Shown: in pieces, positions 5,333 through 42,993 of the stretch
Numbering within the stretch: the stretch's first letter is position 1
Layout of the letters: each line of letters starts with the position of its first letter
Program-made: the position numbers and the translations under genes
Source: an uncultured virus (IMG/VR IMGVR_UViG_3300042154_002964)
Taxonomy: Duplodnaviria; Heunggongvirae; Uroviricota; Caudoviricetes
Strand: one strand, 5' to 3'
Virus record (IMG/VR): IMGVR_UViG_3300042154_002964
DNA length: 64,000 nucleotides
The notes under the pieces: generated by a model
Seen by the model: the letters and a program-made list of their open reading frames with translations, nothing else
Told to the model about the DNA's origin: nothing
Databases searched by the model: none

Positions 5333-5720
5333 GGGGATAACTTGGAATTGACTGGCATTGTTAATTATTCGGGGCACGCAGTGAGAAGATTCCTATCACT
5401 TAAATCTATGGTATCAAATTACAAACGGCAACGTTTTAAACAAAATGGCGACTATCGGATTAATCCGTGAAGACGCTGCAGTAGCTGCCTAAGCTTAGGA
5501 AGACACTAACGGGTCGATGGACATATAACCTAGGAACAGAAGTCTTTACAAAGGTGGAAAAATGACTGAACCCGAAATCGAGTCATTCATTGGTTGTTAG
5601 TTTACGATGATGAAGAACAAACTTACTATTTTTGGAACATTAGAAAATGTTATCCTAAGCGTGTAGTCCTTAGTCTTTAAGGTGTACAACACGAGGGTTC
5701 GACTCCCTCTATCTCCACCA
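5333..5720 (+). ncRNA. ssrA: tmRNA (388 nt)
   Basis: GGGGATA/TATCTCC-ACCA acceptor stem with G3:U70; GAATTGAC 5' motif; T-arm GAGGGTTCGACTCCCTC; tag ORF 5427-5492 GNVLNKMATIGLIREDAAVAA*. Confidence 0.95.
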
Positions 5721-6514: not shown

Positions 6515-6587
6515 TAGCAACGGACGGGAATCGAACCTGTTTGGGTCGGCTTATGAGACCGATGAGATACCTTACCTCCCCCCTGCT
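6515..6587 (-). tRNA. tRNA-Met(CAU), imperfect stems
   Basis: Anticodon arm TCGGT-CTCATAA-GCCGA; GGTTCGATT T-loop; mismatches in acceptor and T stems. Confidence 0.6.
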
Positions 6588-6599
6588 ATATTTGGCTTT

Positions 6600-7490
6600 A
6601 AAAAAGGCTGAGATTATACCTGTTATTGAGAACCTTTGGAAGGATTATTGTTTCCCTTCGTATCCACTTTCTTTTGAAAAGTATTCCTCAGTGTCGGTTT
6701 TTTAGGTGAACCACTCCTTGAGACATCAACTACTCTCTCATTACTCAACTCTCTTCGAGAATGCCTCCCCGACTAATCCTTGCGAGATTAGAGGTTTTTG
6801 GTAAGAATACATTCAGACTTGCGGTCATCCTGTGCAATGAACAACTCATTACTATGTAGACACCTTTCGTTGATATCTGACGGACACTTTTGCTTTAGTT
6901 TAAATTTTAATTTTTACATTAACCTAGTAAAATAAAGTTTTTCGTGTTGTGGATTAATCAAAGTAGTGGTCCGTCTTTCAGATTCGTCGTCTTTTGAACA
7001 ACGAAATACCAAACTACTCTGTGAAGTATCCCTACCTCAATATTTTAAGATTACTTCGAAACAATTCTTTTGGTAAAGAATCATCAAGGAAAATTTCAGC
7101 ACCACCTGTTTGTTTTCATACCTTTCGGTTTTAAGCCACCTCTTATAATGGAAGTCGTAATTGTAACGTTGGATACGATACTTCTTACATAAATCCTACG
7201 AGTTATTCCTATTAGAGTTCCCTCCTCAATCTGATGACCCACATCACCAAATCATATAACCACTTTCTCTACATCGTTGACCTCGATACTAAAGGTTATA
7301 CGGTATCCCGCTTGTGTACTCGACCTCGGTTTCCCAAGACGCAGACCCGTTACACTTGGGGGTCCACTTTATCCTACTTTCGTAGTTTATTTAATGACCA
7401 TACACGGCCAATATCTTTATCAGTTTGTTACTCAAAATCAACCACAAGGGTCTCATCATCAAACATTCTGAACGGATAATCAAATTTCAA
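6600..7490 (-). ncRNA. large ornate ncRNA, GOLLD-like (~0.88 kb)
   Basis: No credible ORF; raised GC; many GNRA-capped hairpins (CTAATCTC-GCAA-GGATTAG, TCTTGG-GAAA-CCGAGG, ACC-GAAA-GGT); 3' ACTGAG...TAATCTCAG pairing; tandem promoters and boxA upstream; adjacent tRNA. Size and context fit GOLLD; family not verified by covariance search. Confidence 0.6.
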
Positions 7491-15697: not shown

Positions 15698-15806
15698 GTT
15701 ATTAATACAGGATTCGAACCTGTGAGTCCCCGTGTATAGGTATCATACATACCACATTCCCGGACTTTATGTATGCTCAACCTTAAGCCACTCGGTCAAT
15801 TAATTA
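15698..15806 (-). ncRNA. tRNA-like element with aberrant enlarged anticodon arm
   Basis: D-arm CCGAGTGGCTTAAGG and T-arm ACAGGTTCGAATCCTGT intact; anticodon arm replaced by CATACATA-16 nt-TATGTATG. Confidence 0.55.
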
Positions 15807-15807
15807 A

Positions 15808-16018
15808 CCACCCCTGAGATTACGGGGTGTAGATGTCCTCAGTTTTTCTTATACAAAACCCAACGCGTCTTACCGCTTAAAAATCAACCATTACGTCGGA
15901 GTGAGGATGGTGTTCCACACTATTAGCCCAACGACCCCCTTTACAAATCCTAATGAGGTATCAGATATATCATTGTTTAAGTAACGATACCAAATCTAGT
16001 GAGTTTCTCGAACTCATT
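15808..16018 (-). ncRNA. candidate structured ncRNA sharing a 3' motif with the GOLLD-like RNA
   Basis: ORF-free; ACTGAGG...CCCCG-TAATCTCA-GGGG end. Confidence 0.4.
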
Positions 16019-16019
16019 G

Positions 16020-16094
16020 TGGAGACAGTGGGAATCGAACCCACCACACGGTGATTGCAAATCATCATCGCCACGCCTTGGAACATTTGCCCCC
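16020..16094 (-). tRNA. tRNA-Ala(UGC)
   Basis: Acceptor GGGGGCA/TGTCTCC with G3:U70; A73; loop TTTGCAA. Confidence 0.8.
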
Positions 16095-16100
16095 AAATTT

Positions 16101-16200
16101 AGACAACAGGTAATACTCACATTTATTATTACCTAACTCAACGACCTCTGCAGTTGTGAATCTGTTTTAAAGGTTTTCCTCGGTGAAGAGTTTGTTGTCT
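16101..16200 (-). ncRNA. candidate multi-stem small RNA
   Basis: Closed by AGACAAC/GTTGTCT; internal AGGTAATA/TATTACCT and AACTC/GAGTT helices. Confidence 0.4.
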
Positions 16201-16206
16201 ATTTTT

Positions 16207-16365
16207 TTATTTGAAAGACTTTGATTGGTCCTCCCTATTTAATTCTTTCTCAATGTAGATATTGACCATATGTATTAGTGTGTCAGAATCAATATCAATT
16301 GTTTGACTTTCCTTACTTTCTTTCAGAAACGGAAAGATATTTTTAAAATACTCCTCGAATTTCAT
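16207..16365 (-). CDS. small hypothetical protein (52 aa)
   Basis: Manual translation MKFEEYFKNIFPFLKE...SFK*. Confidence 0.55.
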   Translation of the reverse strand: MKFEEYFKNIFPFLKESKESQTIDIDSDTLIHMVNIYIEKELNREDQSKSFK

Positions 16366-16369
16366 TTTA

Positions 16370-16702
16370 TTATAACTTTATAAATGTTTCATTTTTGATT
16401 GATTTACTAATCCATCTTGCTAATTCAGAACCTCTTATTTCCGAATTGAAAGAAGTTGTCCCAAGGTCTTCAGATAATGTTGTGACCACATCTGACTCCT
16501 TAACTTTCGCACCAACTTCTAATGTTGATACATTATGTGTGACCTTTACATCAACTGTTGAAATTGGAAACTCGTACATATCACCAAAAACCTCAATCTT
16601 GTAATACAAATTACCTGCAATATAGTGACTAAATTTAGCCATTGCTTTAGACTTCATTAAGTCTTTTTTAATTTCAGTTTCGTTTAACTCAATTGTAACC
16701 AT
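16370..16702 (-). CDS. hypothetical protein
   Basis: ORF within tRNA region. Confidence 0.7.
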   Translation of the reverse strand: MVTIELNETEIKKDLMKSKAMAKFSHYIAGNLYYKIEVFGDMYEFPISTVDVKVTHNVSTLEVGAKVKESDVVTTLSEDLGTTSFNSEIRGSELARWISKSIKNETFIKL

Positions 16703-17009: not shown

Positions 17010-17038
17010 AACTGACTGTTATACTGTTTATTTTATTG

Positions 17039-17111
17039 AGCGGGTGGGGGGAATCGAACCCTCGTCCTTAGATTGGAAGTCTAATATAATAAGCCACTAT
17101 ACGACACCCGC
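17039..17111 (-). tRNA. tRNA-Gly(UCC)
   Basis: TTAGA-CTTCCAA-TCTAA; GCGGGTG acceptor; U73. Confidence 0.92.
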
Positions 17112-17197
17112 AATTTGGGTAGAATCAGACGCGTTCTGTCTACCGAGACCTCGACGTTGTACTATGTTTCAAGTCAGAGCGTACCGAGACACTATTG

Positions 17198-17277
17198 TGA
17201 ACCTGGAGGGAGTCGAACCCTCAATCCTAAAAATCGCGGCTTAAACACGACGCGTATACCAATTTCGCCACAGGTCC
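17198..17277 (-). tRNA. tRNA-Leu(UAA)
   Basis: TCGTG-TTTAAGC-CGCGA; Leu-type D arm. Confidence 0.85.
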
Positions 17278-17283
17278 TTTTTG

Positions 17284-17356
17284 TACCCCTACAGGGATTC
17301 TAACCCCGATTAAACCCTTAGAAGGGGTTGGTCCTATACAGTTGAACGATAGGGGC
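17284..17356 (-). tRNA. tRNA-Arg(UCU), non-canonical T- and D-loops
   Basis: AACCC-CTTCTAA-GGGTT; T-loop TTAGAAT; D-loop lacks GG. Confidence 0.7.
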
Positions 17357-17365
17357 GAATTATTG

Positions 17366-17437
17366 CGGACTATGTAGGATTCGAACCTACGACCTATCCG
17401 TTAACAGCGGAGTGCTCTACCACTGAGCTAATAGTCC
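17366..17437 (-). tRNA. tRNA-Asn(GUU)
   Basis: Loop CTGTTAA; canonical D and T arms. Confidence 0.92.
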
Positions 17438-17449
17438 ATTTAATTGTTG

Positions 17450-17522
17450 AGGTCCCTAACGGATTCGAACCGTTATCCCTGGGTTACAAAGCCAGAATAA
17501 TAAGCCATTATACTAAGAGACC
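17450..17522 (-). tRNA. tRNA-Thr(UGU)
   Basis: CTGGC-TTTGTAA-CCCAG. Confidence 0.85.
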
Positions 17523-17664
17523 AATTAAGAGTGTTATTAATTCGTTTTACCTAAGACCGCGAATCCACGTAAAACTCAACTTCACCAATATTTTTACTGC
17601 AGTTCCAATATTGTCACATTGCTACTATATTGAACTAATAACTACGAATTACCCATCATAATTT

Positions 17665-17740
17665 CACCATCGTTAGGGCTCGAACCTAAAGCTTCCGACT
17701 CCACGTCAGATGTGTTGACCAATTTACACCACTAGTTACT
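17665..17740 (-). pseudogene. tRNA-like element (Pro UGG-like, G33, broken acceptor stem)
   Basis: D arm, TCTGA-CGTGGAG-TCGGA and TTAGGTTCGAGCCCTAA present; acceptor strands do not pair. Confidence 0.55.
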
Positions 17741-17769
17741 TAGATTGACAAATAATTGTTTTTCTCTTT

Positions 17770-17845
17770 GCTGAATAATAAGGGTTCGAACCTTAATCTG
17801 AAATCCGTATTACCATCATCCGTGCTCCATTACACTATATCCAAT
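17770..17845 (-). pseudogene. tRNA-like element with unpaired anticodon stem
   Basis: TAGTGTAATGGAGCAC D arm and TAAGGTTCGAACCCTTA T arm. Confidence 0.5.
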
Positions 17846-17893
17846 CGACAGTTTCGAACCTGTCATATAAAGGGTTATAACTCCTTTATTTTG

Positions 17894-17965
17894 CGGTCTA
17901 TGCGAGAATCGAACTCGCGGCACATCCGTGACAGGGATGTATGTTAGCCACTACACCAATAGACC
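17894..17965 (-). tRNA. tRNA-Asp(GUC)
   Basis: CATCC-CTGTCAC-GGATG; G73. Confidence 0.92.
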
Positions 17966-17971
17966 ATAATA

Positions 17972-18154
17972 AAAACAAGTTTTTCGTGACCTTTACACAT
18001 CATAACCAATTTTACTCGGTGATTACATTTTCGTCATTGGGGTAGCTAATCCCCGACTTATAGTAATTCTACCCTCAATACTTTACTATCGCGAATCAAG
18101 TACCATCTTGGGATTTATAGACAGTGAGGGTTTACTCACCGTCTTCACTTGTTT
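17972..18154 (-). ncRNA. candidate structured RNA (~180 nt)
   Basis: Closed by AAACAAGT/ACTTGTTT; internal AGACGGTGAG/CTCACTGTCT and GGGG/CCCC hairpins. Confidence 0.4.
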
Positions 18155-18156
18155 AG

Positions 18157-18228
18157 TAGCGGGTACAGGATTCGAACCTGTGTCTTTGGGTTATGAGCCC
18201 AACGGGGTGACCACTCCCCCAACCCGCG
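18157..18228 (-). tRNA. initiator tRNA-fMet(CAU)
   Basis: GGG-CTCATAA-CCC anticodon stem; C1:U72 mismatch. Confidence 0.9.
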
Positions 18229-18233
18229 ATATG

Positions 18234-18310
18234 AATTACCCATAGGACTCGAACCTACAACCCTTCGCCCTTTTGAGCGATGTGCAAACCAATTTACACC
18301 ATAAGTAATT
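18234..18310 (-). pseudogene. tRNA-like element with non-canonical anticodon loop
   Basis: D and T arms intact; TCGCT-CAAAAG-GGCGA 6-nt loop without U33. Confidence 0.55.
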
Positions 18311-18405
18311 AATCAAGAACAATAAACAGAAATTAGTGTCGACAAATTTCCTTAGGCAATATGTTTATTTTCTTGTTAGGGTTCGGTTAATTACTCCGAC
18401 CTTTG

Positions 18406-18479
18406 TATCGCGTACGGGATTCGAACCCGTGATTTTCACCTTGAAAGGGTGACGACTTAAACCTCTCGTCTAACGCGAC
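18406..18479 (-). tRNA. tRNA-Glu(UUC)
   Basis: TCACC-CTTTCAA-GGTGA. Confidence 0.9.
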
Positions 18480-18491
18480 ATTTTGTTTTTT

Positions 18492-18570
18492 CTATTCCGA
18501 TATGTCAAAGACCTTTTGTTTTCTTTTGTCTTACAAATCTAATCATTTTCTTTTGTTCTCACAAGCTCTT
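18492..18570 (-). promoter_or_regulatory. promoter (TAGATTTG) plus boxA-like cassette
   Basis: TAGATTTGTAAGACAAAA...GTCTTTGACATATCGG; near-duplicate of 18832-18905. Confidence 0.65.
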
Positions 18571-18589
18571 TGTGATATTTTTTTTTCTG

Positions 18590-18663
18590 TAGTTCAGAAG
18601 GGATTTGAACCCCCAACCTTGACGATATAAGCGTCCTGCTCTCACCTGTTGAGCTACTGAACC
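18590..18663 (-). tRNA. tRNA-Ile(UAU)
   Basis: GGACG-CTTATAT-CGTCA; A73. Confidence 0.85.
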
Positions 18664-18667
18664 AAAT

Positions 18668-18747
18668 ACGTTTCACGTTTTAGGCCAATTAAACTAACCG
18701 CCCGTCGTCACGGACAGTACCGGAGTCGAACCGATATGTGATAACGA
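18668..18747 (-). ncRNA. circularly permuted tRNA mimic (YrlA/Y-RNA-like topology)
   Basis: 5'->3' order: T arm ATCGGTTCGACTCCGGT, acceptor-like stem closed by a GACG loop, D arm GTTTAATTGGCCTAAAAC; termini pair (CGTTATCAC/GTGAAACG). Confidence 0.65.
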
Positions 18748-18749
18748 AG

Positions 18750-18823
18750 TACCCTTGGTGGGATTCGAACCCACAAAAAAATAGTTTCTAAAACTATCGT
18801 GTATACCTTTCCACCACAAGGGT
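18750..18823 (-). tRNA. tRNA-Leu(UAG), short variable region
   Basis: ATAGT-TTTAGAA-ACTAT. Confidence 0.8.
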
Positions 18824-18831
18824 ATCTACTT

Positions 18832-18905
18832 CTATTCCAATATGTCAATGAACTCTTGTTCTGTTTTGTCTTACAAATCTAATACTTTTATTTTGATTTG
18901 CCAAA
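18832..18905 (-). promoter_or_regulatory. promoter (TAGATTTG) plus boxA-like cassette
   Basis: TTTG...TAGATTTGTAAGACAAAA...GTTCATTGACATATTGG. Confidence 0.65.
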
Positions 18906-18915
18906 CTTAGGTCAC

Positions 18916-18947
18916 AAAAAAAACCCCTCTCTTTTGGAGAAGGGTTT
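18916..18947 (-). terminator. putative attenuator terminator 1
   Basis: AAACCCTTCTC-CAAAA-GAGAGGGGTTT followed by a U tract. Confidence 0.8.
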
Positions 18948-18970
18948 CATTTAAATTTTATCTTAATGAA

Positions 18971-19048
18971 TTAACACATCTTCTCCGATACACAAGGATT
19001 GTCTCCCTCCGTTCTCGCATTTAAAAGTATGTTATTCAAATTTTGCAT
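18971..19048 (-). CDS. putative leader peptide 1 (25 aa) of the tRNA sub-array 16020-18823
   Basis: MQNLNNILLNARTEGDNPCVSEKMC*; contains GGAGAAG complementary to the terminator 5' arm. Confidence 0.75.
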   Translation of the reverse strand: MQNLNNILLNARTEGDNPCVSEKMC

Positions 19049-19133
19049 TGTGTTGTCTTTTTTATTAAATATATTGTACTTTTTGAAAAGTTCAATAGTT
19101 AGTGAAAAATTTTTAACAAATTGGTTTAGATTT

Positions 19134-19532
19134 TTAATTTTCAAGTACTTCTTTAACAATTTTTGAAACTAAAGTATTGTCGGCTTTACCCTTATATACT
19201 TTATTGAAAGCACCCATCATTTTACCAACATTATCAATACCATCTTTTTTAAATGTTCTGATGATTGAACGGATACTAAATTCATCCATTAACTTTGGTA
19301 AATATGGTTTAATGTATTCTAATTCTTTTAAAGATTCATCAGTGTTTGTCTGTGTTAATGATTTTTCCATTTTCTTTAAAATAGAAAGAACTACCTCATC
19401 TGTCACACTAACACCTCTACCTTCTTCATTTTGGATTTCACCTTTTAGTACACCTAAAAAGTTTTTCTTTTCCATTTCTTTGTTTTTAAATGCCGTCATA
19501 AATTCGACATTAATTTGTTCTCTTAGTGACAT
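19134..19532 (-). CDS. GatB/YqeY-domain protein
   Basis: MSLREQI...AFKNK...LKGEIQNEE...YLPK...GKMMG...KGKAD...VSKIVK. Confidence 0.85.
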   Translation of the reverse strand: MSLREQINVEFMTAFKNKEMEKKNFLGVLKGEIQNEEGRGVSVTDEVVLSILKKMEKSLTQTNTDESLKELEYIKPYLPKLMDEFSIRSIIRTFKKDGIDNVGKMMGAFNKVYKGKADNTLVSKIVKEVLEN

Positions 19533-19549
19533 AGTTATTTGTTTTTAAG

Positions 19550-19630
19550 TGGGTGCGGAGGGATTCGAACCCCCACGCGATTAAGACCTGAGCTACAATC
19601 AGGCGAGCCAGCCAATTGCTCAACACACCC
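19550..19630 (-). tRNA. tRNA-Tyr(GUA), atypical
   Basis: CCTGA-TTGTAGC-TCAGG; long variable region. Confidence 0.75.
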
Positions 19631-19705
19631 ATAAAGAAAATATCGTAGATTGTCCTTCACAATTTAACGGCGGGTTTGAACTTAATCAACTCTCCTACGA
19701 TATCT

Positions 19706-19791
<86 letters not shown>

Positions 19792-19817
19792 ATTATATGA
19801 CAATTAATGTCATTTCG

Positions 19818-19889
19818 CGCACCACCAAGGACTCGAACCCTGACCAAATGGGTTGGAACCATTTATGCTAGCCATTACACCAATGATGC
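19818..19889 (-). tRNA. tRNA-Trp(CCA)
   Basis: AATGG-TTCCAAC-CCATT; G73. Confidence 0.85.
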
Positions 19890-19916
19890 GAATAATGAAA
19901 TTTTTATATTTCATTG

Positions 19917-19990
19917 AGGACAGAGAGAGGTTCGAACTCCCGAATAATGGGTTTGCAGCCCACCCCTTTAGACCACTCAGGCATCTGTCC
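19917..19990 (-). tRNA. tRNA-Cys(GCA)
   Basis: GTGGG-CTGCAAA-CCCAT; U73. Confidence 0.92.
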
Positions 19991-20186
19991 AATTTAATAT
20001 TAAGTCGCGAGTAATCCATCTGTCGCTTATTACTAGAATCTTGTGGCTTACTTACTATAGTTCATACCGTTACCACTAGGAAACCCAACTTAATATCTTC
20101 GTACTAATTATTTTAGAGATTGGTTCCCGAAGGATTAAACCATCACTTGTACTTCGTGTCAGGAGGTAAACCCCATATCTCTAATG

Positions 20187-20258
20187 TAGCCCCTGTAGGA
20201 CTCGAACCTACACTATCTTGTATGTAAAACAAGTACTTCACCTTTAAGCTAAAGGGCT
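20187..20258 (-). tRNA. tRNA-Val(UAC)
   Basis: CTTGT-TTTACAT-ACAAG. Confidence 0.9.
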
Positions 20259-20266
20259 AATTATTG

Positions 20267-20341
20267 TGACCCCGGTGAGAATCGAACTCACGACCCGTAC
20301 ATTAAAAGTGTACTGCTCTAAACCAACTGAGCTACGAAGTC
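20267..20341 (-). tRNA. tRNA-Lys(UUU)
   Basis: GTACA-CTTTTAA-TGTAC. Confidence 0.92.
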
Positions 20342-20464
20342 AAATTTGGAAGGTCACCACAAACACCTTCCACGGTGAGTATTTTAATGTCGTTTTGTCT
20401 AATTACACCTAAGTGTCATAGTCGCAGGTCTCACTTCACGACAAACCCGATTGGTATTAAGTAG

Positions 20465-20538
20465 TCGGTACGGTAGGATTTGAACCTACGACCTTTCACG
20501 TATCAGGCGAATGCTCTTACCAGCTGAGCTACGTACCG
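20465..20538 (-). tRNA. tRNA-Ile(GAU)
   Basis: TTCGC-CTGATAC-GTGAA. Confidence 0.9.
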
Positions 20539-20545
20539 TTATTTT

Positions 20546-20620
20546 TGGTCGGGGTAGCAGGTGTCGAACCTGCCGCCTCTTGGTCCCAAACCAAGCGTCT
20601 CACCCCAAGACTATACCCCG
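20546..20620 (-). tRNA. tRNA-Pro(UGG) with encoded CCA
   Basis: CTTGG-TTTGGGA-CCAAG; CGGGGTA acceptor. Confidence 0.9.
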
Positions 20621-20686
20621 TTTGTTTGTTTAACAAAGATAAGTAATCATTTTCATTCTCACAATACCTTAGTTAATTTTTTTTTG

Positions 20687-20758
20687 TATCGTTATCAGGA
20701 CTCGAACCTGAACCCACACCTTATGAGAGTGTTGTGACTACCTTTACACTATAACGAC
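20687..20758 (-). tRNA. tRNA-Met(CAU) elongator (or Ile2)
   Basis: ACACT-CTCATAA-GGTGT. Confidence 0.8.
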
Positions 20759-20763
20759 GTTTG

Positions 20764-20851
20764 CGGAAGATGTAGGGTTCGAACCTACGCGTCATATTTC
20801 AGACCTACTTGTTTAGCAAACAAGCCTCTTTACCAATTTGAGTAATCTTCC
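20764..20851 (-). tRNA. tRNA-Ser(GCU)
   Basis: CTTGT-TTGCTAA-ACAAG; long variable arm; G73. Confidence 0.9.
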
Positions 20852-20891
20852 AAAATACACCGACCTAGCTCGGTATCACACATCGGATACG

Positions 20892-20963
20892 TAGTCCCCC
20901 AAGGACTCGAACCTTGACATTATCGTCCGTAGCGATAGGTGCTATCCGTTACACCAAGGAACC
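20892..20963 (-). tRNA. tRNA-Arg(ACG)
   Basis: TATCG-CTACGGA-CGATA. Confidence 0.9.
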
Positions 20964-20966
20964 AAA

Positions 20967-21077
20967 TAATAAGGTTGGAGACTTATAATCGACCATTATA
21001 AGGTTGGAGCCTTATAATCACCCATTATTAGGTCTGAACCTAATATTCACCCATTATTAGGTTATAACCTTATATTG
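20967..21077. repeat. four degenerate 29-nt tandem hairpin repeats
   Basis: Units start at 20967, 20996, 21025 and 21054; consensus TTATwAGG-6 nt-CCTwATAwTCACCCA. Confidence 0.8.
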
Positions 21078-21254
21078 AGTTTTTCTGTAGTGTTTCCAAG
21101 TTTTATACATTCTAACTTGATAACTCATTTTGTTTCCGTAGAAACTTATTCCTTCATCCCAATAAATTGGGTAAAAGTCATTAATCAATCTATTTCGGTA
21201 TTCTCTACCATTTTGTGCTTTGTTCAGTTTTGCTCTGTTGATGTTTGTACTCAT
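21057..21254 (-). CDS. small basic hypothetical protein
   Basis: MSTNINRAKLNKA...KTWKHYRKTQYK. Confidence 0.65.
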   Translation of the reverse strand: MSTNINRAKLNKAQNGREYRNRLINDFYPIYWDEGISFYGNKMSYQVRMYKTWKHYRKTQYKVIT

Positions 21255-21510
21255 AGTTGTGGTTTTTAACCTACAACTTGTCAAATTTTTTCTTCATTTT
21301 GTTTAATGTAATCTAATGCAATGTGTATCAAACCGTTGAGATATTGCCATTTCGGACTTGCGTTCGGATAATGACCGAATATCTCAACTAATTTTTCTTC
21401 TTGCCATTTCCTTTCACTAATGATTGGAGATAACCATCGACCATTTTCTAAGTCGGCATTTACAAATGTTTTTTCTGTCTCTGCGATTTCTAAGTTTTAA
21501 AAATTAATTG

Positions 21511-21585
21511 GGAGTATAGTGAGATTCGAACTCACCCTATTAGCACCACAAACTAACGTGCTCGACCACTGACACTATATACTCC
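21511..21585 (-). tRNA. tRNA-His(GUG)
   Basis: TTAGT-TTGTGGT-GCTAA; G-1:C73 pair. Confidence 0.9.
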
Positions 21586-21663
21586 ATAAAAACCCCACTT
21601 CATCGGATTAATGGACCGACTGCCATATCGGGAGTGGGGGTTTTCCCATCAGTAGGGACTCCG

Positions 21664-21736
21664 TGGGACAGGAGGGAATCGAACCCCCATTGCTTGTTCT
21701 TCAGACAAGTGCCTTGACCAACTTGGCAACTGACCC
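21664..21736 (-). tRNA. tRNA-Phe(GAA)
   Basis: CTTGT-CTGAAGA-ACAAG. Confidence 0.88.
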
Positions 21737-21842
21737 AAATATTTTCATCAAATCACCGATTACCACAATTACGGTGAGACCTTCGGGAACTGCCGTCCCG
21801 TGTTTTCTTTTTACCCGTGGATTAAACTATTTGATGGGGTAG

Positions 21843-21917
21843 TTGTCCCGGCAGGAATCGAACCTGCGATATCCACATTCAAAGTGTGGTGGCTCTGCCA
21901 ACGTCGCCTACAGGACA
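21843..21917 (-). tRNA. tRNA-Gln(UUG)
   Basis: CCACA-CTTTGAA-TGTGG; U1:A72. Confidence 0.85.
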
Positions 21918-22477: not shown

Positions 22478-23050
22478 TTAATTTTTTCTACATTTTTCAC
22501 AAAATGTGATTGTGTTCACATCATTACTTCTGTTTTCAGACATAACACAATTTGAGTTATCACAATGACTCAAACCTAAATTGTGTCCTATCTCGTGAAT
22601 TATGACACGTTTTAATTCATTTGGTCGGTTCTTACCAACAATTATGATATTACCATAAAGTTCACCTAATCCACCAATCGTATTTTTATCTTCTACTGAA
22701 TAACACCCATCATCAGTTAATAAAATTTTATTTTGGTTATTGTCAAAATCCTCTAAAGATTTCTCACAATCAATTAACCCATTGATGTAATAATCAGAAC
22801 TCAATTGAATTGGGTCAATTATTTTAGTTGGAACACCATAAGTCTCTTCAACAATTTGTTTAGCGTGACGTAAAGTACTATTTGAATAATTACCAAGACC
22901 TTGAATATAGATTGTATCACCATCTGTCATTTTTTTCAAATCAATTGAATTTGTGATAAATGTTGGTAATGGGATTTTACCTGATTTAACTTTAGAAGTT
23001 AAAGTAACCATAACCAAAACTATAACACCAAATTTTATTATCTCTTTCAT
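22478..23050 (-). CDS. archaemetzincin (M54)-like zinc metalloprotease, membrane-anchored or secreted
   Basis: HEIGHNLGLSHC...CVM...FCEKC; N-terminal hydrophobic segment. Confidence 0.8.
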   Translation of the reverse strand: MKEIIKFGVIVLVMVTLTSKVKSGKIPLPTFITNSIDLKKMTDGDTIYIQGLGNYSNSTLRHAKQIVEETYGVPTKIIDPIQLSSDYYINGLIDCEKSLEDFDNNQNKILLTDDGCYSVEDKNTIGGLGELYGNIIIVGKNRPNELKRVIIHEIGHNLGLSHCDNSNCVMSENRSNDVNTITFCEKCRKN

Positions 23051-23579: not shown

Positions 23580-24071
23580 ATGGATAAGGTATTAGTATTA
23601 AACTCTGATTATACCCCAATTAACGTAACAAGTACAATACGTGGGTATAATTTAGTTATTAAAGGTAAAGCTGAGATATTGAAGACGGGGGAAAAACCTA
23701 TAGTAACCGGAAACATACCTGTGCTTAGACCTTTGATTATCAGACTATTGAGTTACGTTAAATTTAGAGTTCGTAATCTTAAAATTAACAGACATAGAAT
23801 TTTTAAAAGGGATAATTACGAATGTGCTTATTGTGGTAGTGGGAAACATCTTACTATTGACCATATTATTCCCAAATCAAGAGGTGGGGGTAATACTTGG
23901 ACTAACTTGGTTACTTGTTGTCGAAATTGTAATAGAACTAAAGATGACAAAACACCTGATGAAGCGGGAATGAAATTAAAATACAAACCATTTGAACCTT
24001 CAATCTTTTCTAATGTAATTAATCCAACAATTGAAGATATTTGGATTGATTTTCAAAAGACATTTAGTTAA
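23580..24071 (+). CDS. HNH endonuclease (McrA-like)
   Basis: VLVLNSDY, RDNYECAYCG, TIDHIIPKSRGG, NLVTCCRNCN. Confidence 0.92.
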   Translation: MDKVLVLNSDYTPINVTSTIRGYNLVIKGKAEILKTGEKPIVTGNIPVLRPLIIRLLSYVKFRVRNLKINRHRIFKRDNYECAYCGSGKHLTIDHIIPKSRGGGNTWTNLVTCCRNCNRTKDDKTPDEAGMKLKYKPFEPSIFSNVINPTIEDIWIDFQKTFS

Positions 24072-24172
24072 AAAACAAAGAGGTGTCTCTCGACACCTCG
24101 TTGCTAGATTTGGAACACCCCCTTTCTTTTAAAATGGTTTATTCCTTTCGGGTAACTATCCCGAAGGTAAGT
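24072..24172 (-). ncRNA. candidate small RNA or 3'-UTR element complementary to the host 16S rRNA 3' end
   Basis: AGAAAGGGGGTGTTCCA (24111-24127) between a CCTTCGGG/CCCGAAAGG hairpin and a GAGGTGTC-GAGA-GACACCTC terminator. Confidence 0.5.
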
Positions 24173-25816
24173 TTAAGATAATGCTTTAGTTTTTAATGTA
24201 TTAAAGACACCATCCATATTTCCACTAATTTTACTTAACGCTGGACATATTGCCGCTGCTAATCCTCGTTCTATTGATTGTGCAAAGTCTGAACTATCTA
24301 AACCTTGAACAATAGAATTTCTTAATATATCAAAGAAACCACCCGTCAATCCTGCATTATCTTTAACTTTATCTAACGCCTCTTCAGCGATTGATTTTGC
24401 TAATAATGGTGTTAAGTAATCACACGTTAATATTTTACCTGAAGTATAATCACCAAGTGGTATATTTCCAATTGCTTTCACAATTGTACCGGCAACCCAA
24501 CTATCTGTATTAATTCCCAATTTATTTAATAAGGTCTCAGCGATTTTTTCTTTAAAGTAACCTAAAATTCCTTCAGTTCCTAAACCAAACATACCTTTTA
24601 ATGAATCCCATAATCCTTCAGATATTAATTTTGGTGATAAACCTAAATTAACTAAATCAAATGATTCGTTAAATAATTCAGATACTGACTCTTTTTTCAC
24701 TTTTGAAGACTCGGTAATCATTTTAAAACGTGCATTAATTATTTTACTTTCTGTGACTAATGTTTTTTTTTTACTCTCAGATAACATTGATAATTTACCT
24801 TTGATGATTGATTTAAGAACATCGTCTTTAGACTCATTCATTCGTTGTTCGAATTTGTATCTTAAACCCCAACCACCATTGTTACGTTTCAAAAAGTTAA
24901 TTTCATCTTCAATACCCATAATACCCCCTAAAAAGTTCATACCTTGGGTAGCACATTTATAAGCATAATCCCTAACAGTTTCAACTTCAGTAGCTCCTGC
25001 GGTTACAGGTACATTTTTCGATGCGTTTTTATATAATATTTTGATAGCTTTTCTACATTCATTTCTTGATATTTTTTGACCCTCTAAAGTTGCTGCTAAT
25101 TCTTTTGCACTTGTTGCGGTCGCCCCTTTAACTGCTTGAGAACTTTTTTTCCAAACGACTAAATTTTTTGATGATTTTCCATTTTTTTGTAACACCTTAT
25201 TAAATTCGTCAACAATATTTTCACCACCATTCTTAGTTAATATTGTTAACGCGTTACCTGTTAATGTGTATTCAGGTGTTCCATAAGGGGCTTCTGTAAA
25301 TGTATATCCTATTTTATCAAAAAAGTTTTTAACATTTGGCATTTGGTCAATCCAATTATTTGTAATACCAACTGATTGGTAAATAAAATGTACCCCTTTT
25401 TCTGGAAACGTTTGAGAATTGATGGAGTTTAAGTCGACCGCTTTATAAGTTCCTTTGTCTATTTCACCACGACCACCAGGAATATCTGATAATCTTTTAT
25501 AACCTGTATTTTGTGCAAGTAACGCCTCTACAACCTTTTTTTGGTCAGGACCTAATGGTAAATCAATTTTACCTTTAACCGCTTCACAAGCACTATATGT
25601 ACCTTCATTATTTAGTTTACCATTAGTACCATAAGCTTTATAAGTAAAATCATCATATAAAAACACAATACCTTTACCCGGTACACTTTGTCTTAACGCA
25701 GGTTTTTTAGTGTTTTCATCAGTAACCAATTGATAACCCTTCCAACCACAATCACGTAATAATAACGTTAATGTTTCATTTTGGGTAGTTTCTTGTTCTT
25801 TTATAACTCGTTTCAT
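24173..25816 (-). CDS. hypothetical protein, possibly virion-associated
   Basis: 547 aa; repeated (I/L/M)xE(S) motifs; helical C-terminal domain. Confidence 0.8.
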   Translation of the reverse strand: MKRVIKEQETTQNETLTLLLRDCGWKGYQLVTDENTKKPALRQSVPGKGIVFLYDDFTYKAYGTNGKLNNEGTYSACEAVKGKIDLPLGPDQKKVVEALLAQNTGYKRLSDIPGGRGEIDKGTYKAVDLNSINSQTFPEKGVHFIYQSVGITNNWIDQMPNVKNFFDKIGYTFTEAPYGTPEYTLTGNALTILTKNGGENIVDEFNKVLQKNGKSSKNLVVWKKSSQAVKGATATSAKELAATLEGQKISRNECRKAIKILYKNASKNVPVTAGATEVETVRDYAYKCATQGMNFLGGIMGIEDEINFLKRNNGGWGLRYKFEQRMNESKDDVLKSIIKGKLSMLSESKKKTLVTESKIINARFKMITESSKVKKESVSELFNESFDLVNLGLSPKLISEGLWDSLKGMFGLGTEGILGYFKEKIAETLLNKLGINTDSWVAGTIVKAIGNIPLGDYTSGKILTCDYLTPLLAKSIAEEALDKVKDNAGLTGGFFDILRNSIVQGLDSSDFAQSIERGLAAAICPALSKISGNMDGVFNTLKTKALS

Positions 25817-26943: not shown

Positions 26944-28428
26944 TTATTTCATTGAACCTTTTAATTTACCAAATTTGGATTCTAACCACGAATTTGATTT
27001 TACCATTTTATCACCAAATGATTTCATATTATCGGTCCCAACAATTTTTTCCAATCCACCTGGTTCCATTTCAATACCAAAGGCAAATGCTAATTTAGGG
27101 TCGACATTACCTGTGATTGGTAATTTATATGCCTTCTGAATATCTTTAATTGCTTGTGTTGTTTCGGGTCCGTAAATACCATCTACTTTTCCGTTATATT
27201 TTAATGTGGGAACACCACCCATATTAGCCGGAGTTTGTTTCGCTAATAATATACCTTCTTGGACTTTTTTAACTTTATCTCCTTTATCACCTTCTTTAAT
27301 TGTTTTTTCTTTAAAGAATTCTGCGATACCGACACCAATACCTGTCCCGACCGCTAGTTTACCTAACCCTTTTTTAGTTGCGATTTCTTTACCTGTTTTA
27401 ATTAACGCTTCTTTACCAACATTTAATCCAAATGTTTCACTAATCCAACTAACCATTTTAGTTATTATAGTATCAATACCTGAGAATACTTTACCAATAA
27501 ACCCACCAATATTTTTACCAAAAACTTTAACTATGAATTTTTGAGCATCACCTAAAAATTTACTTAACATTGGTAATTTTTTAATTAATTTTGTTAAAAT
27601 ACCTTTAGCCGCTGGACTTTTAGCTCCGGCCTTAACCGCTTGTTTTAATGTGACACCCGCAGCCTTACCTGCCGCCGCAGTGAATAATAAAGATAGAATA
27701 TCAGTTATTAAAAATAAAAATGGCATTTGTTGTCTTTCAGGGTCTTCAGGGTCGTAATCATTTGATAATATCTCATAGATATCTAACACAACAATTAACC
27801 CCCATATTGCTCTCATAACTACAACAGTTGGGAACATTGATAATATCACATCGGCAATAATACCAATATAACTATTTAAATTACGTCGTACCCAACGTAA
27901 AAATGGTAATACACCTTTTTTCAATATAGGTATAATGACTTTTTGAGCCACAACACTTACACCCTTTTTAATACCTTCCCACGCACTACTAGCGACTGAC
28001 TTAACACCGTTCCACGCTTTACTCGCACCTGACTTGATACTATCCCATAAACCTTCACAAATAACACTAACCTCATCCCAAGATTCGTTGATTATTGTTT
28101 TAGTAACTTCTTTATTGGTAGTTTCAGTTATTAAATAATTTTTGTCAAATTTTTTATCCCATTCAATTAAAATATTCATTTTATCGTTAGGTGATGATAC
28201 TAAGTTTTCAAGTACCATATTTAAAAACTTTCTAGGTGTTGACACCCATTCTGTCAAAGATAATTGACCCTTATTATAACGATATTCAGAATCTGATTTA
28301 TTAATCTTATATAGATTTGAAATAAGATTTGAATTGTATGGTACGAATACTGCAGATTCTTCTAAGATATAAAACCCTTTAGTTGTAAAAATAAATTTTT
28401 CATCATTAGAAATTCCTATATATTTCAT
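26944..28428 (-). CDS. membrane protein with C-terminal peptidoglycan-binding domain
   Basis: Several hydrophobic helices; GDKGDKVKKVQ...VDGIYGPET...LPITGNVD. Confidence 0.75.
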   Translation of the reverse strand: MKYIGISNDEKFIFTTKGFYILEESAVFVPYNSNLISNLYKINKSDSEYRYNKGQLSLTEWVSTPRKFLNMVLENLVSSPNDKMNILIEWDKKFDKNYLITETTNKEVTKTIINESWDEVSVICEGLWDSIKSGASKAWNGVKSVASSAWEGIKKGVSVVAQKVIIPILKKGVLPFLRWVRRNLNSYIGIIADVILSMFPTVVVMRAIWGLIVVLDIYEILSNDYDPEDPERQQMPFLFLITDILSLLFTAAAGKAAGVTLKQAVKAGAKSPAAKGILTKLIKKLPMLSKFLGDAQKFIVKVFGKNIGGFIGKVFSGIDTIITKMVSWISETFGLNVGKEALIKTGKEIATKKGLGKLAVGTGIGVGIAEFFKEKTIKEGDKGDKVKKVQEGILLAKQTPANMGGVPTLKYNGKVDGIYGPETTQAIKDIQKAYKLPITGNVDPKLAFAFGIEMEPGGLEKIVGTDNMKSFGDKMVKSNSWLESKFGKLKGSMK

Positions 28429-40854: not shown

Positions 40855-42993
40855 TCACCTCAATTTTATTTTCATTTTTGTACCTGTTTCATTTTTTTCA
40901 CAAGTAATGGTAAAACCGTGTTCGTGTAAAATTGCGATACAAATATTCAACCCCAAACCTGTTCCTGATTCTTTTTGACCTTCTTTTCTATGATATGGTT
41001 GTGATAGGTATTCGAATTCTGATTGAGTCATACCACGACCATTGTCCTGTAATGCTAAGTGGTTTTCGTCTTCCATATAGACCGCAACCACCTTATTATC
41101 CGAATCGTTATATTTTAAACCATTACGAATTAAATTATCAATTGCCGTACAAAATAGAGGTTCATTAACATCCAATGTTGGTAACCAATCAATTGCAACT
41201 TGACTTGAATATGCGGTGGATGTTAAGTATGAGTTTAAGATGTCTCTTAGATTTAAATTTTCTTTTGTTAATACAACATCTTGTTTAACTAAATTTGTAA
41301 ATTCATAAACTCCCTTATAAACTTTCTGTGTATGTTTTAAACCTTCCTTCAACATTTTAAGTGGGGCTTCCAATTTTAATGTTTCAATATCTTCAGGTTT
41401 TAATCTTCGTTCTAACGAACTAATTCCTCTTGGGATGTATGTGTTTATCCCTGAGTGCATATCGTGTCTTAGAATCTTCGCAGCGTGTTCTAAATATGTG
41501 TTTTTCTTTTCTATCTCTCTCTTTTGTTCATAAGAAGTTGTAATGTCTGTTGAAATTTTCATAACACGATAAACCTTACCATCAACACTAAGAATTGGGT
41601 TGTAAGTTGCTTGTAAATAAACTAAAGAACCATCTTTTTTAATTCTAATAATTTCACCTGAAAATGATAAACCATCTTTTAATTTTTCCCAAAAAATACG
41701 ATACTCGTCACTTTTTGAATATTCTTCATCCACAAAAATTCTATGATGATTTCCAATTACTTCAGCATTAGATGAATATCCCATAGTTTCTAAGAACAAA
41801 TTATTGGCAAAAACGATATTACCTTCTAAATCAAATTCAATAACCGCATTAGATTTATTAATAGCATTCATTCTATTATGAATTTCTACTTCCTTTTTTT
41901 TAAGTTCAGTAACGTCTTGTCTAATTGACGTATAACCTTTTACTTTACCGCTATCACTATCAAAATCGGCTTTAATATAGGTGTCAACCCAATATAATTC
42001 ACCTTCTTTATTTTTATTGATAACTAAGTCATTCCAAATCCCACCTTTTTTAACGGTCTTATACATATTAGCCCAAAATTTCTTATCGTGAATTCCCGAA
42101 TTAACAATATTATGGTCTTTACCTAAACACTCATCAAGACTCCAACCTGAAACATCTTCAAATTTTTTATTAACGTAAACAATTTTACCTCTTTTATCTG
42201 TTTTACTGACCAAGACTGATGAGTCCACAAAATGTTCAAACTCACCTAATTCATTTTTAAGTTCATTACCTTCTTGAACTGAATAAGCAAATGAAAATAA
42301 TGACGATAACATTTCGGCAAAATTTACTTCCACTTTATGCCATTCCCTAACCGTATAACTTTCAATACATATTACACCAATTACTTCACCTTTATAAACG
42401 ATTGGAACGTCAAGCATTGCTCTAACACCTAATGGGTCTGAATAAGTTTCTTTAAAACATTGTGTTGATGGATGTAAATTAACATCATTTGCAATTATAA
42501 TCGGATTTGTTTTAAGTCCATTGAAGTATGGTTTATAATCTTTTTCAAAAATCTCAATCCCGTTAACCCATTCACCTGTTTTTTTCTCATATAATTGTTC
42601 ACACACAATACTTGTTTTTTTCTGGTTATATAACCAAATTGAACATCTATCGGCACATACGCTATTTGTAACTTCTTTAGTTAATAATTTAGCACCTTCA
42701 TTAACATTTCCCTCATAAAATAAATGATTGTGTGTTTGTGATATTAAAGTTTCATTTAAATTTCTTGCGTAATAATTCAATTTAATTGATTCTTTATTTT
42801 TTTTCACATAATCATAAATTATTTTGAAAAATAGGGGGATAAATAAAACAAAACAGATAAATTCAACCCACATTACTGAATTACATAGGGGTAGAATATT
42901 AAACACCACTAAAAGTTTTATTATCAAAAACATTGTCATCACAACGACTGAGGTATAAAAAGAATATCGTGTGTTTTTTTCTAGTGATATCAT
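40855..42993 (-). CDS. membrane GAF-PAS-PAS sensor histidine kinase
   Basis: Two N-terminal TM helices; GAF (ADRCSIW...LDVPI); two PAS domains; H-box LRHDMH, N-box NLIRNGLKY, DNGRG, GTGLGL. Confidence 0.92.
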   Translation of the reverse strand: MISLEKNTRYSFYTSVVVMTMFLIIKLLVVFNILPLCNSVMWVEFICFVLFIPLFFKIIYDYVKKNKESIKLNYYARNLNETLISQTHNHLFYEGNVNEGAKLLTKEVTNSVCADRCSIWLYNQKKTSIVCEQLYEKKTGEWVNGIEIFEKDYKPYFNGLKTNPIIIANDVNLHPSTQCFKETYSDPLGVRAMLDVPIVYKGEVIGVICIESYTVREWHKVEVNFAEMLSSLFSFAYSVQEGNELKNELGEFEHFVDSSVLVSKTDKRGKIVYVNKKFEDVSGWSLDECLGKDHNIVNSGIHDKKFWANMYKTVKKGGIWNDLVINKNKEGELYWVDTYIKADFDSDSGKVKGYTSIRQDVTELKKKEVEIHNRMNAINKSNAVIEFDLEGNIVFANNLFLETMGYSSNAEVIGNHHRIFVDEEYSKSDEYRIFWEKLKDGLSFSGEIIRIKKDGSLVYLQATYNPILSVDGKVYRVMKISTDITTSYEQKREIEKKNTYLEHAAKILRHDMHSGINTYIPRGISSLERRLKPEDIETLKLEAPLKMLKEGLKHTQKVYKGVYEFTNLVKQDVVLTKENLNLRDILNSYLTSTAYSSQVAIDWLPTLDVNEPLFCTAIDNLIRNGLKYNDSDNKVVAVYMEDENHLALQDNGRGMTQSEFEYLSQPYHRKEGQKESGTGLGLNICIAILHEHGFTITCEKNETGTKMKIKLR

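Follow-up and report, generated by a model that had tools for sequence, protein, structure and literature searches.

The DNA analyzed here, called the window throughout, is a stretch of 64,000 nucleotides (nt) from an uncultured virus of the Caudoviricetes (IMG/VR record IMGVR_UViG_3300042154_002964). Two convergent genes in it, one encoding an HNH endonuclease and the other a protein of 547 amino acids (aa), are separated by an intergenic gap of 101 nt, and this gap holds a motif complementary to the 3' end of the 16S rRNA of Bacteroidota. We are highly confident that the motif belongs to a conserved, structured RNA encoded on the minus strand. The features at the locus are as follows, in window positions:

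23580..24071, plus strand: convergent HNH endonuclease gene, 163 aa counted from the ATG that matches relatives (PF14279, E 2.1e-16; phrog_16726, E 7.8e-38)
24067..24177, minus strand: the whole element, an RNA of about 105 nt that begins at the 547-aa gene's stop codon and ends with the U-tract of the terminator (109 positions in covariance model R1)
24070..24099, minus strand: P3, a predicted intrinsic terminator, GAGGUGUC-GAGA-GACACCUC (24080-24099) with the tail UUUGUUUUUU (24070-24079)
24105..24109, minus strand: AUCUA, 8 nt past the GGGGG core at the start-codon position, reading AUC UAG in the window
24111..24127, minus strand: the 17-mer AGAAAGGGGGUGUUCCA, which complements the 3' tail of 16S; conserved throughout the family is the core AAAGAAAGGRGG(U), at about 24117-24130
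24112..24145, minus strand: hairpin P2, outer helix GGAAUA / UGUUCC, 2x2 internal loop AA/GG, inner helix CC/GG
24134..24139, minus strand: AUAAAC, invariant columns in alignment A2; 5' strand of P2 and partner of the Shine-Dalgarno (SD) core and its 3' flank
24147..24165, minus strand: hairpin P1, UUCGGG / CCCGAA with the 7-nt loop AUAGUUA, extendable to 24144-24167 with one bulged A
24173..25816, minus strand: 547-aa gene, whose transcript is ended by the element; its C-terminal domain of about 190 aa is kept beside the element in distant relatives

Read along the minus strand, the order is the stop codon, P1, AUAAAC, the purine tract AAAAGAAAGGGGGU, GUUCCAA, AUCUA, P3 and the tail UUUGUUUUUU.

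The first-pass annotation had placed the 17-mer on the plus strand at 24111-24127 and had stated the end of the Bacteroidota 16S rRNA; both statements held. The plus strand reads TGGAACACCCCCTTTCT at this position, and the 17-mer occurs only once in the window even when 3 mismatches are allowed. We took the 16S tail from sequence data: a viral contig that starts inside a 16S gene (L018) reads ...GCGGCTGGAACACCTCCTTTCT, and GGAACACCTCCTTTCT lies at the 3' end of the small subunit (SSU) rRNA genes of two Bacteroidales metagenome-assembled genomes (MAGs), where the Rfam SSU model stops. The pattern TGGAACACCTCCTTTCT, derived from the 16S end of L018, has this motif as its sole match in the window at no more than 2 mismatches. 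From shuffled sequences 0.02 such matches were expected, and any match at all was found in 2 of 100 shuffles. The minus-strand RNA pairs with the tail over all 17 nt, with one G:U, as had been proposed, at -29.8 kcal/mol (ViennaRNA duplexfold). When both strands of the nearest record of this phage (G001, 186.8 kb) were scanned for duplex energy, the motif came first at -29.8, the runner-up reached -23.1 and the rest were at -19 or weaker. We also looked for ATG, GTG and TTG at start-codon distance from the motif and found none of them, in line with the first-pass annotation. In the standard secondary structure, 16S positions 1528-1529 are part of helix 45, which would probably limit the pairing on a ribosome to about 15 of the 17 pairs.

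Two further sets of matches were noted. The runner-up 17-nt complement of the 16S tail (GAGTGAGGATGGTGTTCCAC, -23.1 kcal/mol) is at about 15899 on the plus strand of the window (8553 in G001), where only short open reading frames (ORFs) are found (15780-16370). An exact search for the 17-mer in viral contigs (L004-L044) returned its reverse complement fused to ATG (AGAAAGGAGGTGTTCCATG) in 35 of 41 stretches, most of the 35 from one family of contigs of about 35 kb; two more stretches have the ATG one base further. These are ordinary strong SDs with start codons in unrelated phages, while L018 is a real 16S end.

The 111-nt stretch is predicted to fold with a minimum free energy (MFE) of -37.2 kcal/mol (z = -5.04), a stability that not one of 200 shuffled versions attains. 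P3, with its 8-bp G+C-rich stem followed by a U-run on the minus strand, has the sequence features of an intrinsic terminator. The motif had been described as single-stranded between a 5' hairpin and a terminator. The flanking hairpin and the terminator are both present; the motif itself is partly helical, being drawn into P2. This hairpin, predicted by RNAalifold and part of the window's MFE structure, displays AAAAGAAAG, the A-rich part of the purine tract, in its apical loop. It buries two core G in the CC:GG helix together with the UGUUCC flank and places two further G in the AA/GG internal loop.

Related loci were gathered through the HNH protein, which gave 80 at 53-100% identity; the 547-aa protein gave just two viral-contig loci. 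In the relative L003 the 547-aa protein is 66% identical, the spacer is almost unchanged and P1 carries a compensatory U-A to C-G change. Model R1, built from the 25 sequences of a hand-made alignment (A2), scores 109.5 bits on the window and G001 (E 1.8e-18). It matches 64 of the 78 loci L057-L134 at E <= 0.002 on the strand opposite to HNH which, with L055 and the window, makes 66 of 80. Each genome holds a single strong copy, as in G001, where the one match at E 1.8e-18 is followed by others at E 0.01 or weaker, and the element was matched in 25 of 29 related records. A gapped word pattern recovered at least 120 metagenome stretches; 77 of the 80 with DNA match R1 at E <= 1e-5. No element was found in 150 sampled genomes of the Bacteroidota phylum by a filtered search that scored 25 candidates per genome and ran without a positive control. 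Rfam 15 contains no family that matches at its gathering threshold; the best at E <= 10 were sraA (19.1 bits, gathering 56) and BTnc231 (14.7 bits, gathering 80.4). Whatever its target, the element represents an RNA motif that is new, occurs widely (at least 77 metagenome contigs and 66 phage loci) and has good support for its structure.

Covariation supports the helices in both alignments. In A2, 92.4% of cells are paired and 16 of 26 pairs vary on both sides; none of 500 shuffles reaches these values, and alignments slid out of register give 40-61%. The wider alignment A3 (55 distinct rows), which was fitted by the model and is biased towards it, gives 93.1% of cells paired and 24 of 26 pairs varying on both sides (0 of 500 shuffles; slid controls 44-56%). 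P1 has all six modelled pairs varying on both sides and 88-89.5% of cells paired, with GUAR as the loop motif of relatives. For P3 the corresponding values are 11 of 12 pairs and 98.5%, and the U-rich tail on the minus strand is kept in all relatives. P1 and P3 are beyond doubt real helices. P2 is probably real as well, with weaker support than the other two: its six outer pairs all vary on both sides in A3 (86.7% paired) and are near-invariant among close relatives, and it folds otherwise in 4 of the 24 sequence types shown. Its general form is (G)GRAUA..CC upstream of the tract with GG..UAUUCC downstream, and the same architecture recurs in distant relatives as GGAUA/UAUCC, AAAUCAC/GUGAUUU, AUAAAC/GUUUAU, UAGGAU/GUCCUA and UAAACC/GGUUUA.

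We then asked which strand is the functional one, using 54 distinct rows from which one opposite-strand, terminator-only match (L085:1934-2031) had been removed. G:U pairs, valid on the minus strand only, number 112; A:C pairs, the counterpart of G:U if the opposite strand were the RNA, number just 10. The functional RNA is therefore the minus strand of the window. This bears on the plus-strand anti-SD (ASD) decoy suggested by the first-pass annotation. In a scheme of this kind, a plus-strand RNA would mimic the 16S tail and titrate bS21, bS18 or bS6, or pair with the SD of host rpsU. Its attraction is that 16 of 17 positions are identical to the 16S tail and that TAGATTTG at 24105-24112 (plus strand) fits TAnnTTTG, the promoter form of Bacteroidota. 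An ASD mimic that binds bS21 also exists in OLE RNA (PMC12054373). The excess of minus-strand G:U pairs, and a U-rich tail past P3 that is constant on the minus strand only, speak against the decoy, and we regard it as extremely improbable.

Two plus-strand candidates at the same place were examined and dropped. TAGATTTG was considered as a promoter; its TTTG is lost in most distant relatives, and TAnnTTTG was found 119 times against 101 expected, a number reached by 9 of 100 shuffles. Read in reverse, the same octamer corresponds to the invariant AUCUA and the three bases after it. A 15-codon plus-strand ORF at 24134 is not kept in L003, where the changes compensate for the hairpin.

The same data speak to the idea that the locus has no SD-like RNA function at all. 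It would then be a bidirectional terminator with sequence hitch-hiking on a mobile HNH gene, or a DNA site for packaging or for a nuclease, and the 16S likeness would be due to chance. Genes of the HNH type are frequently mobile or found next to cos sites. Between the window and L003, the HNH gene and spacer have diverged far less than the 547-aa gene, and 64 kb were scanned for anything striking, so that multiple testing is a concern. Against this, the core is still present where HNH identity has dropped to 53-57%, all three helices show compensatory changes, the ratio of 112 to 10 points to selection on an RNA of one strand, and a chance match is expected only 0.02 times per window. Where a tRNA and a ClpP-like gene have come between the element and HNH, the element has remained beside the 547-aa-type gene. 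We consider an absence of SD-like function very unlikely. Homologues of the C-terminus of the 547-aa protein lie beside the element in L003, L103 and L123, and in L103-type relatives the ClpP-like gene (L103 2125-2802) sits between the HNH gene and the element.

Conservation within the element is uneven. Four parts are kept family-wide: AUAAAC, AAAG(A)AAGG[G/A]GG(U), AUCUA and the terminator. The core varies solely at the position facing U1537, where it has G or A, both of which pair with U. GGGGG is found in most lineages and GGAGG in at least five, and the A-run and the U facing A1534 are retained. AUCUA is present in 50 of the 54 distinct elements, and in 45 of these 50 it stands 7-9 nt from the core, the same as the distance from SD to start codon quoted in PMC7797042. 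Most lineages have UAA or UAG as the triplet after AUC, two have UAC, and no conserved ORF lies downstream. With an SD-like core, AUCUA at the distance of a start, a triplet that is not a start codon and no ORF, the element looks like a translation initiation region stripped of its start codon and gene. The 16S-complementary core may be described as an "orphan" extended SD, with 9-11 nt of complementarity across the family and 15-17 nt in this phage. The first-pass annotation had proposed to look for conservation of the motif and for changes restricted to G:U-compatible ones; both are seen in the core, with its single G/A site, and the data do not support the full 17-nt pairing as the selected feature.

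Several variations on this theme were considered. The GGAGAG variant of the L058 group, compared with the alternative anti-SD sequence ASD2 (AUCUCAUU), fits at one of two diagnostic positions. A pseudoknot between AUCUA and the P1 loop was rejected by eye, GUAA loops occurring without a matching change. A slippery site of the frameshift type is absent upstream of P3 in the window. Read-through of the stop codon into AUC UAG would be in frame in the window and L123 and out of frame in L055 and L071, and was rejected.

The phage's own genes use no SD. Among 46 non-overlapping ORFs in the window with a length of 150 aa or more, not one has a site of -7 kcal or stronger at -22 to -3, compared to 3 of 46 in a mock window, and adenine makes up 57-67% at -14 to -10 upstream of ORFs versus 32% overall. 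This SD-less, A-rich pattern is that described for Bacteroidia (PMC9976891). A host of Bacteroidota type, implied by the first-pass annotation, is supported by these leaders and by the cellular relatives of the family's bS21 recovered in a genome scan, 29 of 29 of which are Bacteroidota by record title. The bS21 genes of the phages are also without an SD (best -9.6, in one of four). Because neither the phage ORFs nor the phage bS21 genes carry an SD, the motif is not part of ordinary phage translation. As a separate observation, the intergenic terminators of two related records are often AAAAGGAGG...CCTCCTTTT hairpins (for example G005 233281-233296 and 244391-244406; G002 118063-118078), whose arms resemble an SD paired to an anti-SD.

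To our knowledge, the rpsU mRNA is the sole natural mRNA that pairs with the ASD in Bacteroidia. The ASD of these bacteria is buried by bS21, bS18 and bS6, and rpsU alone has an extended SD and is best translated by ribosomes lacking bS21 (PMC7797042, PMC9976891). In initiation complexes on rpsU mRNA, cryo-electron microscopy showed a 13-bp SD-ASD helix in 65% of wild-type particles, from which bS21 is absent because the helix clashes with its C-terminal helix; the pairing length of rpsU SDs is 9-13 bp (PMC13000457). Binding of rpsU mRNA is tight even without initiator tRNA (PMC9976891), and the integrity of the ASD also matters for 16S processing (PMC13000453). The authors of PMC9976891 speculated that rpsU autoregulation is a counter-defence against bS21 phages.

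We compared the element with rpsU leaders directly. The leaders of the cellular bS21 genes nearest to the phage bS21, from 29 Bacteroidales-type MAGs, all lacked an SD (best -8.4 kcal), and a phylum-wide sample was therefore used. Against the 17-nt tail, the rpsU leaders of 30 genomes of the Bacteroidota phylum range from -2.8 to -22.8, with 25 of 30 at -10 or stronger. The element gives -29.8 in the window, -23.6 in its commonest type and -13 to -26 in others, so its pairing strength is within or above the range of rpsU leaders. In a comparison of five genomes, two of which gave no tail match, the rpsU flank tracks the host tail, being GGTGTT with TGGAACACC (G167) and GGTGAT with TGGATCACC (G165 and G105). 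The 3' flanks of the phage SD, GGUGUU and GGUGAU, are the same two types as those of host rpsU SDs (AACACC and AUCACC tails); GGUAUU is a further phage variant.

The element can form at least 9 consecutive pairs with the 16S tail, like an rpsU-type SD (17 in the window, 9-11 family-wide). As in rpsU, the long complementarity reaches the terminal nucleotides of 16S, the P-site position would lie at a similar distance, the pairing is as strong or stronger, and the sequence is the lone strong SD of an otherwise SD-less genome. Where rpsU has a start codon 7-9 nt downstream opening an ORF, the element has AUC UAG at 8 nt and next the terminator. Unlike rpsU, it is phage-encoded, has neither start codon nor ORF nor a link to rpsU, lies at the 3' end of a transcript, with a terminator immediately after it, and has part of its sequence hidden in a hairpin. 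It would be a second RNA, this time phage-borne, with an SD equal to or longer than that of rpsU, gene-less and conserved across a clade of bS21-encoding phages.

Genes for bS21 are common in the related phages. Among the 29 related records, bS21 scores above the Pfam cut-off in 22 (5 of the 5 tested first and 17 of 24 further ones), including 4 of the 4 that are at least 98% complete. Both element and bS21 are present in 20 records, the element only in 5, bS21 only in 2 and neither in 2. Every record that does not hold the pair is incomplete, with G018 at 89%. The phage bS21 retains Tyr54, a Bacteroidia-specific residue that stacks on A1534 (PMC9976891). Chen et al. 2022 (PMC9723584) described phages of freshwater Bacteroidetes that encode bS21, and the present clade matches that description; a look-up by term in their text gave no mention of such an RNA.

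Taken with the published precedent of rpsU, the minus-strand element fits an RNA that engages the ASD. What we observe is the motif, its uniqueness, its structure, strand and conservation, and its association with a clade of bS21-encoding phages. Transcription, binding to the 16S 3' tail and any effect on bS21 are inferred, the binding from the hidden ASD and the rpsU helix that excludes bS21. Our favoured reading, which we hold tentatively and with slightly less than even confidence, is that of an ORF-less extended SD RNA of the rpsU kind acting through the 16S 3' tail. The RNA would bind the tail of 30S subunits or ribosomes without bS21, or displace bS21, like rpsU mRNA. The A-rich loop AAAAGAAAG could serve as a toehold on the extreme 3' end of 16S, after which P2 might open and extend the SD-ASD helix. 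The outcome could be competition with host rpsU mRNA, or the freeing of the ribosomal bS21 site for phage bS21, or both; alternatively, bS21-free subunits or pre-30S particles could be kept engaged. The more specific version, an "anti-anti-SD" RNA that copies the ribosome-binding signal of host rpsU without its gene, traps bS21-less subunits or ousts host bS21, blocks the SD-dependent translation of rpsU as the host's sole route to new bS21 and admits the phage bS21 made independently of an SD, seems to us conceivable and on balance doubtful.

If the 16S tail is bound, the element would link the hidden ASD and rpsU of Bacteroidia with the bS21 genes carried by phages, and it would offer a concrete molecule for probing how phages take over bS21 occupancy, through existing Flavobacterium johnsoniae assays. 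Should both the binding and the effect on bS21 be real, this would amount to a novel way of subverting the host, through what would be the first known case of an RNA that reprograms the composition of ribosomes in infected cells.

A number of results weigh against this favoured reading. Family-wide conservation extends over no more than 9-11 nt (GAAAGGRGGU), the match over all 17 nt being confined to the window's sublineage (window, L055 and L057). Most relatives read GGUAUUCC, with one extra A:C mismatch, and distant ones diverge more in the 3' flank; this 3' extension covaries with its internal P2 partner instead of staying complementary to 16S. In the free RNA, the 3' third of the motif (UGUUCC) and two core G are predicted to be paired in P2. 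The G-to-A change seen at the variable core site is also the commonest neutral change. No piece of an RNA run (X1; contigs only, 6% of words, five pieces) falls on the element. bS21 was not found in the 194 kb of this phage (window and G001, 64% complete), and in relatives it lies 23-41 kb away on the 3' side of the element (35.6 kb in G007, the nearest record with both). Two bS21-bearing fragments are without the element and five element-bearing records are without a good bS21, all of them incomplete, and co-occurrence within one clade is not independent evidence. The window extends 24.1 kb on the bS21 side of the element, and synteny would place a bS21 gene beyond the window end.

Pairing strength also has its limits. 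Four genomes were scanned with 16S positions 1532-1544, a 13-nt tail that PMC9976891 had also used. The element ranks first in G001 (-20.4 kcal/mol, next best -17.3) and in G005 (-20.6 kcal/mol, next best -16.5). It is fourth in G002 (-16.8, top site -17.6) and outside the top 6 in G004 (best other -17.8). In G002 and G004 pairing strength alone is in the range of chance, and the element is a genome-wide outlier in only two of the four, which again counts against a role at the 16S tail. Since the energy is not an outlier everywhere, the case for 16S rests jointly on the conservation of the core and the way it varies, on its distance from AUCUA, on the lack of SDs elsewhere in these phages and on the context of the clade.

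These same points make room for a structured regulatory RNA, either a 3' untranslated region (3'-UTR) element or a small RNA derived from it, in which the purine-rich loop of P2 binds a partner other than 16S, such as a protein or a pyrimidine-rich segment of host or phage RNA, and the likeness to an SD is incidental. The structure and its conservation are real under this explanation too. The loop shows mainly the A-rich AAAAGAAAG with much of the G-run paired, the ASD pairing energy is no outlier in two of four genomes, and the invariant AUAAAC, AUCUA and P1 loop GUAR suggest sequence-specific contacts that SD-ASD pairing would not need. A search for a conserved complementary site in four phage genomes found none; CCYCCTTTY sites were mostly terminator arms, and the others were scattered. 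The explanation also leaves the start-codon-like spacing of 7-9 nt to AUCUA unaccounted for, as well as a sole variable core site that faces U and a clade with an ASD-guarding ribosomal protein. We therefore see a partner other than 16S as a serious candidate, though an unlikely one.

A role in cis must be weighed as well. Start-less SDs that stabilize an mRNA are known from Bacillus, where the STAB-SD of cry3A is an SD-like 5' stabilizer that directs no translation and presumably acts by binding 30S. By analogy, a ribosome with a free ASD could park on the SD and AUCUA just before P3, and so mask the 5' arm of the terminator and allow read-through, or protect the mRNA 3' end or hold ribosomes on a late transcript. 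The geometry is favourable: the SD is 8 nt from AUCUA and the 5' arm of P3 begins 5 nt past AUCUA, probably within reach of the ribosome footprint, and the element always terminates the same type of gene (547-aa). Read-through, however, would run antisense into HNH, or into a tRNA or ClpP-like gene in some relatives, which makes no coherent regulon. Known SD stabilizers work at 5' ends, and no conserved alternative antiterminator pairing was seen (one considered, by eye, in the window alone). A cis role is in our opinion improbable. The element resembles STAB-SD in being SD-like without a start codon. STAB-SD acts near the 5' end of its transcript on ribosomes that use SDs freely, whereas the element sits at the 3' end, after a stop codon and before a terminator, in a host type with a sequestered ASD.

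Other known systems show partial likeness. Helix P6 of OLE RNA is a mimic of the SD/ASD duplex that binds bS21 (PMC12054373), and like the element it belongs to a non-coding RNA with SD- or ASD-like sequence linked to bS21 biology. Whereas P6 combines an ASD copy with an SD-like strand and binds protein (PMC12054373), the element has no CCUCC on the RNA strand and thus no intramolecular CCUCCU helix; its SD core pairs with AUAAACC, which is not ASD-like. In the distant variant L102, CUUUCU pairs with AGAAAG. In icaR of Staphylococcus aureus, an anti-SD-like motif in the 3' UTR pairs with the mRNA's own SD (PMC3868564). Both cases place a motif of the SD/anti-SD system in a 3' UTR of bacterial type; the element's 3' UTR, in contrast, carries the SD-like strand, and phage mRNAs offer no SD/anti-SD partner. 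In the literature searched (full texts, by term), no phage-borne, gene-less SD RNA is described.

The phage to which the window belongs is large: CheckV puts the completeness of G001 at 64%, and the genomes of relatives reach 295-322 kb. It carries a cargo of translation-sphere RNAs, namely 25 tRNAs, a transfer-messenger RNA (tmRNA) and a GOLLD RNA:

5333-5720, plus strand: tmRNA (74.5 bits)
6516-6589, minus strand: tRNA-Met, directly abutting the GOLLD RNA
6605-7021, minus strand: full-length GOLLD RNA (316 bits), adjoining the tmRNA

The other 24 tRNA genes, all encoded by the minus strand, form an array at 17038-21917 that separates the GOLLD/tmRNA region from the element. With the bS21 gene of relatives added, this array makes up a "translation island" on the 3' side of the element. 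Like GOLLD, tmRNA and the tRNAs, the element is a non-coding RNA of the translation sphere, clustered with them within 20 kb in the same phage; it differs in having no kinship with them in sequence or structure.

The 2.6-kb region around the element has no match in GenBank phages, and the HNH protein matches cultured phages only at 44% identity or less, in cyanophages and actinophages. The 547-aa protein has no Pfam or PHROG match, and the ESM Atlas gave nothing usable; its predicted model has a pLDDT (predicted local distance difference test) of 0.46. One piece of the RNA run, a 268-nt contig, lies at 24423-24690, inside the 547-aa gene. The 494-aa protein encoded at 26944-28428 (minus strand) resembles tape-measure proteins (phrog_1272, 5.7e-10) and contains a peptidoglycan-binding domain, which suggests that the operon terminated by the element is a late structural one.

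Further genes in the window are worth recording. A 190-aa protein resembling zinc metallopeptidases (Peptidase_M54 1.2e-9, Matrixin 6.4e-7) is encoded at 22478-23050 on the minus strand, three genes beyond the element; it has been speculated that bS21 phages might carry a protease aimed at host bS21 (PMC9976891). A ClpB/ClpA-like chaperone with a double AAA+ domain (AAA_2 4.2e-68) is encoded at 558-2639 on the plus strand. At 40855-42993 on the minus strand lies a gene for a 712-aa sensor-kinase-like protein with GAF, PAS and HATPase_c domains, an unusual cargo for a phage.

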